Shown: in pieces, positions 1 through 6,138 of the stretch
Layout: each line of letters opens with the position of its first letter
How positions within the stretch are numbered: the stretch's first letter is position 1
DNA from: Chryseobacterium hagamense
GTDB taxonomy: Bacteria; Bacteroidota; Bacteroidia; Flavobacteriales; Weeksellaceae
Length of the DNA: 64,000 nt
NCBI RefSeq assembly: GCF_007991455.1
Contig: NZ_BJYJ01000003.1
Location: forward strand, 148,715 to 212,714
Direction of reading: 5' to 3'
Program-made: the position numbers and the translations under genes
Notes under the pieces: generated by a model
The model's database searches: none
Told to the model about the DNA's origin: nothing
What the model saw: the letters and a program-made list of their open reading frames with translations, nothing else

Positions 1-3000
1 CCATATTCTATACCACCAGCATTAAAACCGCCTTGCTGGTAAGAAAGACCATATTGATCTGAATTAGCAAAAGACCATATTCTGTTCCTTCCAGCCACAT
101 AATATGTATTTTGAAAACCATTATCTGAGAGTGAAAGCCCTGCTGTCCTTATATTACCTTTTGAATAAATACCCAGATACGGAATATTGCCTTCGTCTTG
201 AAAAGCGTTGGAGACGAGCAATCCACCCATATATGCTTTCTGAGCTTCACTTCCATTTAAAAAACCAAAAGGTGTAGAAGCATTAATACCTGTGTAACCG
301 GCAATGGTATACTTCTTCCAATAATCTCCTAATTGTGATGATAATGCAAAATCGGATAAAGGCTTATGACCGCCGCCGGCTAATAAAATTGAATTGTCAT
401 CTAATCCGTTTTTTATGAATCCGTTTGTCTTAATCGGGAAATAGCCATTCCAATCAGTACCAACAAAGTGAAATCCACCACCATCGAATCCTAATTGCCC
501 AATGCTAATACCTTCTTTATAAAATGTCATCGCTGGATTTACCGGATTTATGGCATAAACTATCAATGAGTTATCGCCCCAACTACTGCCATAGGTATCA
601 AAAAACTTTCTGTTTGTTATATGCTGAACTGTATCGGTAGTTAAAAAATCAGATAATGATTTATGTCCTCCACCGCCTAAAAGAACATAGCTATCATCTG
701 AATTTTCTTTACAAAAAGCGTTTGAATAAACTGGTTCAAAACTGGTATTATTAATATTTCGGAAATAAAAACCATTCCCCCTGTATTGAATCGTTGCTGC
801 GTATGAACCACCTTGATGGAATGATAATGCTGGGAAAATTCCTGGACTGGCAGACCCACCACCTCTTATTTCTAAGGCTGTTTCATTATATGCGTTACCA
901 GTTGCACCACCAATACTTTTTCTTCCGTTAATATTTTGGAATGTATTAAGTGTAACATAATCAGAAACCATGTTATTCCAGGAATCTACATTAGCTTGAT
1001 TGAAATGACCTGAATGCCAGTAATCAACAAAAGATTGATAAGTTGCAGGACTTTGGAAGGTTCCTTGCCATTGTCTTAACCCAAAACCGTTCTTTTTAAA
1101 AGCTATCAAATTTTGATTACCACCGGATGCGTCCGGATAACCACCAAAATGTAAAAAATCTGCCCAAGGTGCAGTATTATCGTTATTCCATGCTGTAAAG
1201 CCGAATTGTAATTTAGCTACTTCAATATTTTCCGGCCGTAAAATTCTGGCATCACCATAGCCTTTGTAAGTAAACCAACCATCTAAATAGTTTTGAGTTA
1301 CTCCATAAGCAGGATGTGTTTTTGGGATGAAATTTGCATTAGTCCAATTTCTTGTAGCTACTTCGCTATTGTTATAAAATAACTCACCACCGTAAGGCTG
1401 TAAGCTTAGTCTATAAGCATTTTGCTGTCCATCTGCTCTTTGTTGCTGAATATATCCAGTTCCGTCTGATTCGGTAAAAAATACTGTGCCATATTTAGCA
1501 ACATCACCAGAATTAGCTAAAAACAATTTGTAGTTTGCGGGTAATGTTCCCAAATTTAATGAACCAATAGAATCAGGACTATTAATTGTAAGTCCACCTG
1601 TCATGGTATCGCCTGATTTATTTAATTTAGAATCCGGATTAAAATTATGTTGATCCCAAATTACTCCAACACCATGTCCAGTTCTATTATGAAATAGATT
1701 ATTATTATCACTTTCTAAATAAAAAGCAGCAACCGATGGATTACCCATGTATAGAGTATCAGCATTTTCAGCATTGAAAACTTGTCCACCAGATAATAAT
1801 AGTGAAGTAAACTTTTTTCCATAAAAAATACCCCCTGTTGAAATATCTCCTTTTGAGTAAATTCCATTGTTTGGAATGTATTGATTATCAGCATATATAT
1901 CAGATACTAATACTCCGCCTGTTAAAATTTTTTGCTGAGTATCGCCTTCAGTTAGAAACGCAAATGGTTTATCTGATTTTATTCCGTTATAAATACCCGC
2001 AATATCATACTTTTTCCAGTAATTTCCTAATTCTGATGAAGCTGCAAAATTTGCACTTACCCAATCTGTATAGGCAAGTTCTCTCCAATTACTCCAATTA
2101 CCTGCACCTAACCCACGGAAATATATTTTATAATCACCGTTAAATCCTAATTGTCCACCATAACCACCAGGGTGTGTTGAAATGCTCAATATAGAATTTG
2201 CATTATTTACCATTGGGAACATATTTGAAGAACCGGTATGTATTCTCTGATTAAATTTAAATTCACTTTCATGAAAAAGAGAATTTGCATCTACATCTAA
2301 AGTGTCTGGTGAAAATAAGCTTTGATGTGTATGATTATGACCAGGTAAATAATTATCTCGTTTGAAATCACTTGGTGTTGCTTGACCTTCATTAATAAGT
2401 CCAAAAATACTTCCATCAAATTCCGCGCTCCAATTCTGAGCATCGAAAGGTTCATCATCCCAACTATATGCCATAAAGTCAGTTATAGCAATTCTTGGAT
2501 AGCCTAACCCAATTACTATATTAACATATAATATATTATTTGAATCTTTAAGAAACTCTATTCTAGTTATATCCTCTGAGTTTCCAGCCTTCCATGTAAC
2601 GTTGGTACCATAGTTACTATTATTATACTTGTAGTTATTAATATTAAATTCATAGTAATCATGAGCGTAACGGTATAACTTAACTGTAAATGTTCCCATG
2701 TTCCCAGAAGTAAGACCAGTTTTTATAAGCACTGATGAAAAGTAACCACCAGCAGCATTATTAGCTAAAGTTAAACCTAAATTGTTATGCTTAATACCAC
2801 CATTAGTAAATAAGCGATTTATATTTGTTAAGCTTTTTCCATTGAAGTCAGGATTTTTTATGGCACCGGTATAGGGTATTAATGAAGATAATTCCTTATG
2901 TCCACCACCTGCTAATAAGAAGTAATTATCATCAAAACCATCTTTGATAACACCGCCTGTTTTGATAGGTAAATATTGATTTCCAGATTCATTTAAAAAA

Positions 3001-5307: not shown

Positions 5308-6138
5308 TTATGGTTTAACTTTTAAAATAAGGATGTTAATGGGGTTTTCGACACCACCCAACAGATTAACTTCGATGATCTGATTAGTGGCATAATCGTC
5401 GATATTTATTTTTTTTCCTGTCACGCTGTCCCGGGCCTGGATGATTACATGTTCCGTTTCGAGGGTATTGGGAAATCTCGTGCTTTCTGTCACCTGCACC
5501 ACTGCACTGGTACGCGTCTCTGATATTAAAATGACCTTGTCATGAATCTGCCTGTTGAATTCCTGCTGATTTTTAGGATGGTTCAATCCGTCATAGTCAT
5601 GCAGAAGCTTCACTTTATCTTCGGATAAACCTGCCTCTAAAGCTTCAAAATCATCACGGCTTTTTTTGATAAAGTCAACAATTTCCTGGAGTTCATCCAG
5701 AGACAGATCATTGGATATCAGGATCTTTTTAATATTTCCGATTTCTGCGGTGAGGTCTTTATCCGTATTTTTTAACAGGTCAACAAAAGCATTGATTTCT
5801 GTTTTGGTATAGGCATTACCCGGCTGACCGGAACTGTCTACGGTAGCCACATTGCCGATTCCCAGTTTATTTTTCCAGCTGCCGATATGGGCTGGGCTTA
5901 AATTTCCCGCATCCAGTAAAGCCAGATACTCCGAATGGGCTTCCGAATCGGATAAATGTTCCTCAAATGCTTTTGCTGAGGCAAACGACTGAAGAATTTC
6001 CTTCAGCCCTTCAATACTTTCTTTGGGAATTGGGTAATCTTTATGGTAAAAAGCTAAAAAGGTGGCTTTAAACTGAGCTTCTGTGGGAGTCTCTCCGGTT
6101 TTAAACCAATCGATAATGGTATTTAATGGTGTATTCAT
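5308..6138 (-). CDS. Hypothetical protein, 276 aa; first gene of the fibre-like array
   Basis: Complete ORF. The N-terminus, IIDWFKTGETPTEAQF, is a segment I associate with phage tail-fibre / baseplate-attachment N-termini; this is from memory and unverified. It sits 11 nt upstream of the next gene on the same strand. Confidence 0.45.
   Translation of the reverse strand: MNTPLNTIIDWFKTGETPTEAQFKATFLAFYHKDYPIPKESIEGLKEILQSFASAKAFEEHLSDSEAHSEYLALLDAGNLSPAHIGSWKNKLGIGNVATVDSSGQPGNAYTKTEINAFVDLLKNTDKDLTAEIGNIKKILISNDLSLDELQEIVDFIKKSRDDFEALEAGLSEDKVKLLHDYDGLNHPKNQQEFNRQIHDKVILISETRTSAVVQVTESTRFPNTLETEHVIIQARDSVTGKKINIDDYATNQIIEVNLLGGVENPINILILKVKP

Follow-up and report, generated by a model that had tools for sequence, protein, structure and literature searches.

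The tail fibres of a phage or tailocin decide which cells it attacks, and four described systems come close to the genes considered here. In T4 the long tail fibre is made from consecutive genes (gp34–gp35–gp36–gp37), and in T-even phages the specificity of the fibre genes is reshuffled by recombination at short conserved motifs. The R-type pyocin fibre PA0620 is chromosomal, phage-derived and selected for host benefit, and pyocin fibres belong to a full gene cluster for sheath, tube, baseplate and lysis that also has a chaperone gene. The stf genes of cryptic prophages in Escherichia coli are fibre genes that survive without a virion and can recombine with incoming phages. The mosaic adhesive trimer (MAT) fibres of Bdellovibrio are phage-fibre-like mosaic trimers, chromosomally encoded and without a tail. 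Their N-terminal part is invariant and their distal domains can be exchanged; MAT proteins have a signal peptide, a shared ∼130-residue β-rich N-terminal domain and often a Peptidase_S74 chaperone (PMC10769870). Here we describe a cassette of three consecutive genes (gene 1, gene 2 and a giant gene; together, the trio) at the left end of a 64,000-nucleotide stretch of Chryseobacterium hagamense DNA (RefSeq assembly GCF_007991455.1, contig NZ_BJYJ01000003.1, positions 148,715 to 212,714; the whole stretch is referred to as the window). That phage-derived tail fibres can be retained in a bacterial chromosome is already known, and this cassette is a variant of such cases. Our preferred reading, to which we assign a probability of roughly 0.6, is that the trio is the long-tail-fibre gene set of a contractile-tailed Bacteroidota phage and is now a resident, selectively maintained operon of the C. 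hagamense chromosome.

The open reading frame (ORF) calls confirmed the layout given by the first-pass annotation of the window: three minus-strand genes, a gap of 11 nt between genes 1 and 2, a single base shared by the TGA of gene 2 and the ATG of the giant gene (4283..4281, reading TGATG) and 1,427 giant codons open to position 1. About 2.1 kb of the giant gene falls beyond the window; the full-length protein is P0008 (2,143 residues), which is 100% identical across the 1,427 residues of the window and which NCBI names 'pyocin knob domain-containing protein [Chryseobacterium hagamense]'. The gene 2 protein is P0319 of C. hagamense, with the UniRef name 'Tail fiber protein'. The trio had been described as rich in Gly, Asn, Thr, Ser and Tyr, which holds for the giant (43%) and gene 2 (37%); gene 1 is much less so (27.5%) and has 26% charged residues. 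Pfam and NCBIfam scans of all three proteins gave zero family matches. The G+C content of the giant gene (window 1–4000) is 0.36–0.38, compared with 0.45–0.46 in genes 1 and 2 and their neighbours (4001–10000); the low value could reflect swapped modules of foreign origin or a composition rich in Asn, Tyr and Thr.

On sequence comparison, each of the three proteins shows homology to components of phage fibres. A scan of viral contigs with gene 2 returned two loci, including L037 (IMG/VR UViG_3300017792_000038), in which genes for a tail sheath, a tube-like protein, a tape measure, two baseplate-hub proteins and small tail proteins are followed by the trio: a gene 1 homologue (41% identity) with the same N-terminal motif, a gene 2 homologue (61%) and a 960-residue fibre starting MLAPEYFNNHI.... 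The contig L040 (Logan SRR33478916) has the order DUF2586, PhageMin_Tail, Baseplate_J_C, trio, lipoprotein and endolysin, with trio identities of 42, 55 and 60% (the last over the first 53 fibre residues), and in the Chryseobacterium prophage L036 tail proteins and a lysozyme lie ahead of the trio. From this synteny the trio is the fibre module of contractile-tailed Bacteroidota phages, in which its normal place is directly after the baseplate genes.

Gene 1 is 41–42% identical, over its full length, to the gene directly before the gene 2 homologue in L037 and L040. Its N-terminal pattern (Table 1) occurs once in the 64-kb window and is common to the gene 1 homologues, a 270-residue protein of L037, a 130-residue protein of Flavobacterium phage fF4 and two proteins (c5 and c7) encoded farther upstream in the island of sister species described below. 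The centre of gene 1 has 52–54% identity across 56 residues to a Campylobacter phage tail fibre, in addition to its PHROG match. A PDB sequence search with gene 1 and the giant gave nothing useful; the single match (PDB entry 1bmv) was due to chance.

Gene 2 carries the ∼35-residue repeat G(l/v)i.iAT..Ea..GtD....(m/i)TP of T4-type fibres. The repeat region matched 9x3r_M, a T4-type long-tail-fibre proximal subunit (E = 5.9e-7), 5iv5_O, the gp12 short tail fibre (E = 1.7e-5), and the Gp12 of PDB entry 9f4b, and the PHROG matches of the protein were phrog_910 (tail collar fibre), phrog_972 and phrog_8443. Its identity is 80–93% in 27 Chryseobacterium loci, 55–61% in the myophage contigs and 42% in a crAss-like phage. 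An AlphaFold2 model of the monomer had a predicted local distance difference test score (pLDDT) of 76 and a predicted template modelling score (pTM) of 0.38; Foldseek with this model gave no match at E < 1e-3, the top entries being phage fibres and spikes (KP1 Gp12 at 1.4e-2, the phi297 tailspike and the R2 pyocin fibre), and monomers of intertwined trimers are a poor test of this kind.

The giant belongs to a family of 65 homologues of 1,451–3,862 residues, the named members of which are all from Chryseobacterium. Its N-terminal joint also starts the fibres of the phage contigs L037 and L040 (MAPEYFNN start). The C-terminal domain, of ∼125 residues, is of at least two types; one type is found at an identity of at least 60% in 21 of the 65 members, on the fibre of a second set in the locus L002 and, at 33% identity, on the phage fibre of L037. 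Scans of the giant against Pfam, NCBIfam, PHROG and PADLOC returned no match. By an iterated hidden Markov model (HMM), P0008 has four knob-like domains, of which two fall within the window. A profile built from 30 knob domains matched the R1/R2 pyocin fibres of PDB entries 6cl6 (1.4e-7), 6ct8 (2.3e-7) and 6cl5 (4.9e-7) and the F2 pyocin side fibre of entry 25ve (2.6e-3); the pyocin-knob name given by NCBI is therefore justified at the profile level. Two further segments resemble gp37: that at residues 677–843 has 33–50% identity, with E values down to 2e-6, to targets annotated 'long tail fiber distal subunit', and the target of the second lies within a 2,367-residue protein of MA9V-2, a Chryseobacterium jumbo phage. 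The assignment of the trio to the receptor-binding or tail-fibre proteins of phages, which the first-pass annotation had drawn from composition, is thus upheld by the gp12/gp34 repeat, the pyocin knobs, the gp37-like segments and the place of the trio after myophage baseplate genes.

A repeat module of the giant had been reported as having at least five copies and belonging to no named family, and both statements stand. Regular expressions recovered the two motifs ..LLGGGGHK.LSDF and T..T.Q.[IV]...K.F in the giant, and an HMM seeded on them found five full copies of ∼100 residues with domain E values of 1e-32 to 5e-41. The copies share just 36–40% pairwise identity and are on that account old rather than recent duplications; a recent origin by tandem duplication is ruled out by this identity together with a search for DNA-level tandem repeats, which detected none in the module region. 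An alignment of 54 module copies led to an AlphaFold2 model (mean pLDDT of 90.7, pTM of 0.69) without a PDB counterpart: the module had no significant match among Pfam, NCBIfam and PHROG profiles or PDB structures, and the weak, nonsignificant top fold matches were Bdellovibrio MAT fibres. In an exhaustive profile search 967 cluster representatives carried the module at E ≤ 1e-3, and 257 did so at E ≤ 1e-10; the carriers include a phage-like contig with a 3,437-residue protein, and the named ones are all from Chryseobacterium. It is an unnamed but not rare fibre module. On the crAss-like phage contig L041 (GCA_015665545.1) a 199-residue protein (11578–12177) with the sequence ..DDTYLLLGGGGHIEISYF.. 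follows a gene 2-like protein of 525 residues; fibres of crAss-like phages thus make use of the module's junction motif (here ..LLLGGGGH..) as well. A short metagenomic contig, L038, has two adjacent module-bearing proteins of ∼1,170 residues each (9142–16375) amid ordinary genes (Peptidase_M48, beta-lactamase, Y-family polymerase, VanY and patatin), with no tail genes seen on the contig, which makes it an orphan fibre locus of another kind.

Between its conserved N-terminal joint and its conserved C-terminal domain the giant is a mosaic of modules, knobs and gp37-like segments. Blocks of it are exchanged between strains that are otherwise nearly identical. In a comparison of the window with L001, a Logan contig that is 99.5% identical across 12 kb, identity is 99.5% from position 15296 down to 3168 and 98.3% from 634 to 1; between these, 2.5 kb of the window is replaced by 0.97 kb of unrelated fibre sequence in L001. 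The break points of this block are module starts, at residues 372 (module 3) and 1217 (module 5). Across 30 loci, similarity to the window's giant breaks within 45 nt of a module boundary in 26 of 28 cases, against a random expectation of 18%, although most of them fall at one and the same boundary near the N-terminus and the distinct clusters number only eight. The junction motifs (..LLGGGGHKxLSDF and TTNTxQxIxGxKxF) may act as short patches of homology for crossover, and the swapping of modules would then alter the binding specificity.

The trio is under purifying selection and the cassette is not decaying. In comparisons of the window with ten species, the ratio of nonsynonymous to synonymous substitution rates (dN/dS) is 0.09–0.13 for gene 1 (dS of 1.1–1.9) and 0.03–0.08 for gene 2 (dS of 0.6–2.5), and these comparisons include species that all have the reduced form of the locus discussed below (L003, L006 and L028). 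For codons 1–366 of the giant gene dN/dS is 0.12–0.18 (dS of 0.35–1.8). The giant ORF is intact, at 1,191–2,633 residues, in every locus whose contig spans the gene. The nucleotide identity of genes 1 and 2 is 81–84%, compared with 72–80% for the flanking sensor kinase genes.

Table 1. Positions of the cassette genes, their domains and the adjacent ATPase gene in the window; residue numbers are those of the protein concerned.
Feature	Coordinates	Strand	Evidence or remarks
Gene 1	5308..6138	(-)	ORF, 276 aa, start MNTPLNTIIDWFKTGETPTEAQF; putative proximal fibre adaptor
Gene 1 N-terminal motif WFKTGETPTEAQF, residues 11-23	6070..6108	(-)	Pattern [FWY]x[TDNSE]Gxx[PI][TS]xxx[FWY]
Gene 1 centre, residues 126-182	5593..5763	(-)	phrog_19602 'tail fiber protein', E 2.6e-7
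Gene 2	4283..5296	(-)	ORF, 337 aa; putative fibre connector; best conserved of the trio
T4 gp12/gp34-type tail-fibre repeat, gene 2 residues 214-266	4499..4657	(-)	PDB and PHROG matches
Gene 3 (giant)	1..4283	(-)	Open frame, codons 1-1,427 of 2,143, running off the window edge; putative distal fibre or receptor-binding protein
N-terminal joint, giant residues 1-55, MIAPEYFNNHIAVEGEI...	4119..4283	(-)	At least 67% identity in 60 of 65 family members
Module copy 1, giant residues 52-155	3819..4130	(-)	HMM domain E 5e-41
Module copy 2, giant residues 268-369	3177..3482	(-)	HMM domain E 2.3e-32
Module copy 3, giant residues 366-470	2874..3188	(-)	HMM domain E 1.4e-33
Module copy 4, giant residues 1108-1215	639..962	(-)	HMM domain E 1.6e-38
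Module copy 5, giant residues 1212-1314	342..650	(-)	HMM domain E 1.2e-35
Strain-variable block, giant residues ~373-1216	635..3167	(-)	Alignment of the window with L001
Pyocin-knob-type domain 1, giant residues 642-772	1968..2360	(-)	Family HMM E 8.6e-10
Pyocin-knob-type domain 2, giant residues 1005-1119	927..1271	(-)	Family HMM E 2e-18
T4-like long distal tail fibre segment, giant residues 677-843	1755..2255	(-)	tblastn against Acinetobacter T4-like phages
Second copy of the distal-fibre segment, giant residues 1318-1402	78..332	(-)	42.5% identity, phage MA9V-2
AAA+ ATPase, 444 aa	6690..8024	(+)	PF00004; CDC48/VCP-D2-like; facultative cassette neighbour

A scan of one genome per species placed the cassette in 27 further Chryseobacterium or Weeksellaceae loci, all three genes being present in every locus. 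Among 31 loci compared, 18 have the trio preceded on the same strand by an AAA ATPase (434–438 residues), a 189-residue lipobox protein and a 146-residue phage lysozyme, and in most of the 18 a second fibre set follows. The 189-residue protein has a lipobox and a C-terminal transmembrane segment, an architecture like that of a unimolecular spanin. Three loci that were extended upstream (L033–L035) have a coiled-coil/hydrophobic protein of 1,398–1,416 residues with a variable C-terminal toxin domain, then two immunity-like paralogues, and also a divergent HTH_3/Peptidase_S24 repressor and a holin-like gene with three transmembrane segments. This ∼30-kb island showed no family of sheath, tube, baseplate or capsid proteins, and the 1,416-residue protein, considered as a tape measure, has no phage match. 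The ATPase of the island is 78–96% conserved, with its motifs intact. The C. hagamense clade (the window, L001, L003, L006 and L028) has a reduced version, from which the lysis genes are gone and in which the ATPase is inverted. The island (L033–L035, 1–20858; L002, 1–20507) also holds a 52-residue helix–turn–helix-like gene, a secreted repeat protein and three proteins with the gene 1 motif, and its toxin has a swappable C-terminus (an HExxH motif in L034, Toxin-deaminase in L002); complete genomes that bear the island include CP188192.1, CP079219.1 and CP139139.1. Small proteins with an N-terminal lipobox, encoded in L002 (6868–7437 and 14652–15101) and L040 (13219–13830), lie beside the endolysin or between fibre sets, and the two of L002 also have a C-terminal transmembrane segment; in architecture these small proteins are like unimolecular spanins, although they gave no family match.

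The ATPase of the window is just 30% identical to the conserved ATPase of the island and is missing in L003 and L006. It keeps Walker A but has DG in place of DE in Walker B, no Asn at sensor 1 and RY instead of RR at the Arg finger. The orthologue in L028 is degenerate too (DK), and between it and the window dN/dS is 0.13 (dS of 2.2), which suggests a conserved non-hydrolysing role for the degenerate protein. The IetA/IetS defence system was considered for this ATPase and rejected: the similarity is of a generic AAA kind (55.8 bits against a cut-off of 510) and a protease partner is lacking.

In the reading that we prefer, a single long trimeric fibre would be built from the three products, joined head to tail. 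Gene 1 would supply the proximal adaptor, anchored via its WFxTGxxPTxxxF N-terminus, and gene 2 the connector; the giant would dock via its invariant first 55 residues and form the distal receptor-binding shaft. As there is no export signal, the fibre would have to act after cell lysis or inside the cell. Most likely it would be mounted on a particle, either a phage or phage-tail-like, that takes its baseplate from genes elsewhere, in a resident prophage, a tailocin or an infecting phage, and the degenerate ATPase would probably be a leftover of the ATPase–lysis–fibre island. Several points weigh against this. With 64 kb of the genome read, a partner particle with a baseplate encoded elsewhere is an assumption, and the monomer models of the module and of gene 2 lack a significant fold match. 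The fuller island of the sister species is also without recognisable tail genes, which weakens the need for a tail. Finally, the low dN/dS could come partly from selection in phages, if segments are repeatedly imported by recombination.

The island of the sister species also lends itself to a use of the fibres without any tail. They would be the fibres of a genus-wide, repressor-controlled lysis–fibre–toxin island and might guide or accompany the polymorphic toxin or form free fibre particles or decoys, the window being a reduced version in which a non-hydrolysing ATPase serves as an assembly chaperone. We think this unlikely, although it is the main alternative and worth following up: the ATPase–lipoprotein–lysozyme–trio order is found in 18 of the 31 loci, mostly with a second fibre set, L033–L035 add the repressor, the holin-like gene, the toxin and the immunity-like genes, and no sheath, tube, baseplate or capsid family and no phage match for the 1,416-residue protein was found in the island. 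The intact motifs of the island ATPase, and the constraint on the degenerate one in the window (dN/dS of 0.13), fit as well. However, the window itself has neither lysis genes nor repressor nor toxin, and L003 and L006 lack even the ATPase; the unannotated proteins c5 and c7, another named c10 and a 211-residue protein could be unrecognised structural proteins, and tail genes could lie elsewhere in the island-bearing genomes. We also know of no precedent for tail fibres that act without a baseplate. In a bolder proposal, the giant mosaic fibres of the genus-wide island would be set free by lysis and act as bacteriocins or toxin-delivery particles of a new, fibre-guided kind, with the C. hagamense cassette as a reduced derivative comprising fibres, still under selection, and a non-hydrolysing ATPase; this too seems to us unlikely.

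It is improbable that the cassette is a functionless relic of a degraded prophage that has not yet decayed and is at most, like the stf genes of E. coli, a passive store of fibre sequence with which incoming phages may recombine. In favour of a relic, there are no tail, head, integrase or lysis genes nearby, the ATPase has lost catalytic residues, the giant gene has a G+C content of 0.36–0.38 against 0.45 in its neighbours, and the recent replacement of the variable block shows exchange with outside donors. A relic would nevertheless be hard to square with dN/dS values of 0.03–0.18 at dS of 0.35–2.5, also among species that share the reduced state, with ORFs of 6–8 kb that are intact in every spanning locus and have kept their coupled starts, or with the better conservation of genes 1 and 2 than of the sensor kinase genes beside them (81–84% against 72–80% nucleotide identity).

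The first-pass annotation had also offered a fibre-type adhesin operon, which in its present form would be a cell-surface fibre exported by the type IX secretion system (T9SS) or another route, like the Bdellovibrio MAT fibres. The proteins are long, modular and rich in Gly, Asn, Thr, Ser and Tyr, the weak fold matches of the module are to MAT fibres and the UniRef name of one homologue mentions a secretion-system C-terminal sorting domain; we nonetheless regard this as very improbable. No signal peptide was apparent at the N-termini MNTPLNTIIDWF.., MNNNAVISNNAH.. and MIAPEYFNNHIA.., and hydropathy over 19 residues reaches a maximum of ≤1.4 in each of the proteins, which leaves no hydrophobic or transmembrane segment (no dedicated predictor was used). 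The T9SS C-terminal sorting domain, for which a check of the missing end of the giant had been advised, was not found in full-length members of the family: TIGR04183, TIGR04131 and PF18962 (Por_Secre_tail) had no match at E ≤ 1 in full-length P0008, P0010, P0035 and P0045 or in the 2,633-residue protein of L001. The ∼125-residue C-terminal domain of the giant family is also carried by the phage fibre of L037 (33% identity), and the signal peptide and conserved ∼130-residue N-terminal domain of MAT proteins (PMC10769870) are absent here.

Ordinary genes surround the cassette. To the right of gene 1 are a 551-bp spacer, the divergent AAA ATPase, PAS/histidine-kinase genes, a Reg_prop hybrid kinase and a LuxR response regulator, with ordinary genes (GNAT, SnoaL, MarR, SDR, photolyases, ABC1 kinase and TetR) out to at least 29 kb. 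Downstream of the giant gene are an ORF of 120–133 residues and then a Na+/H+ exchanger in L001, and aldo-keto reductase, SDR, AraC and decarboxylase genes in the sister species L003. Pfam checks, which covered the ORFs tested at 6.7–29 kb of the window and the 10-kb flanks of close relatives, revealed no sheath, tube, tape-measure or baseplate families, and tblastn of phage and island proteins against the whole 64-kb window returned the trio and the ATPase only; the window has no tRNA gene. In the window, L001, L003, L006 and L028 the trio is not directly after baseplate genes, as it is in phages, and is flanked by sensor kinases, the Na+/H+ exchanger and reductases. A tailocin lysis cassette and a LexA/CI-type repressor are absent from the window, and from the Afp1-16-type core of an extracellular contractile injection system (eCIS), which consists of sheath, tube, spike, baseplate, tape measure, terminator cap and a functional AAA ATPase, the window has a single-domain AAA protein alone; a literature search on Chryseobacterium tailocins or eCIS found nothing relevant. 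The earlier suggestion that the trio is the edge of a phage-tail-like, eCIS, tailocin or prophage locus with sheath, tube and baseplate genes just outside the window, to the left, is already largely refuted and barely credible, since, despite the presence beside the fibre genes of an AAA ATPase of the CDC48-like clade, a pairing also seen in eCIS loci, and despite fibres of pyocin-knob type, the giant gene ends 2.1 kb past the window and is followed by the small ORF and the exchanger (L001, which served as the leftward extension) or by housekeeping genes (L003), while upstream of gene 1, where phages have their tail genes, the window has sensor kinases and metabolism genes to 29 kb.

Two other features near the trio were observed. 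The 16-mer TCTGCTGCAGCTACAG, which contains the palindrome GCTGCAGC, is present in two copies 111 nt apart on the minus strand of the spacer between gene 1 and the ATPase (6481–6496 and 6592–6607) and is absent from the rest of the window (0.01 expected); L001, L003 and L006 keep one of the copies, and the 16-mer could be an operator or promoter element. A scan for sigma-70 promoters and terminators found sites no more often than in shuffled sequence, the sigma-70 model being unsuited to Bacteroidota. Beyond the ATPase, a PAS ORF (8804–9784, plus strand) overlaps a PAS-HisKA-HATPase ORF (9730–10917, plus strand), as it does in L001 (407 and 395 residues), and a single sensor kinase of 786 residues corresponds to the pair in L003 and L006; from this one-gene state, the C. 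hagamense sensor kinase gene appears to be split or frameshifted.

If the preferred reading holds, the cassette clearly exemplifies fibre genes that persist as a set after the loss of their virion and remain under selection throughout a bacterial genus. The family of the 100-residue module, with 967 clusters and no structural or family annotation, is a natural parts list, and crossovers at module junctions offer a testable rule for the engineering of receptor-binding proteins for Bacteroidota. The locus also gives a lead to the partner of the fibres, which may be a tail encoded elsewhere or, of greater interest, a tail-less use of fibres together with a toxin and lysis cassette. For annotation, the name 'pyocin knob domain-containing protein' in Chryseobacterium is not a marker of a tailocin locus.

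Among the known systems, the uncultured Bacteroidota myophages L037 and L040 come close to the cassette, as they have the same three genes in the same order, the gene 1 motif and the MAPEYFNN start (identities of 41, 55–61 and 36–60%); there, unlike in C. hagamense, the trio comes after sheath, tube, tape-measure, hub and baseplate genes, and the distal fibre has only 727–960 residues with at most a partial copy of the module. With T4 the cassette has in common the use of consecutive genes for one fibre, the gp12/gp34 repeat in gene 2 and the gp37-like segments of the giant; it differs in having two small proteins and one of 2,143 residues, no chaperone gene of the gp38/gp57 type, a location outside a phage genome and a module without a T4 counterpart. 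The giant and the R-type pyocin fibre share knob domains and a chromosomal, phage-derived state under selection, but no cluster of the pyocin kind is adjacent to the trio, and the giant is about three times as long as the pyocin fibres (691–701 residues according to PDB entry titles), with four knobs and five copies of an unrelated module. The signal peptide, ∼130-residue N-terminal domain and S74 chaperone of MAT fibres are all lacking in the trio, and the structural similarity to them is nonsignificant. In contrast to the stf genes of E. coli, a cassette of the C. hagamense type has been kept across many Chryseobacterium species with dN/dS of 0.03–0.18, most of which have it within an organised island that brings an ATPase and lysis genes of its own.

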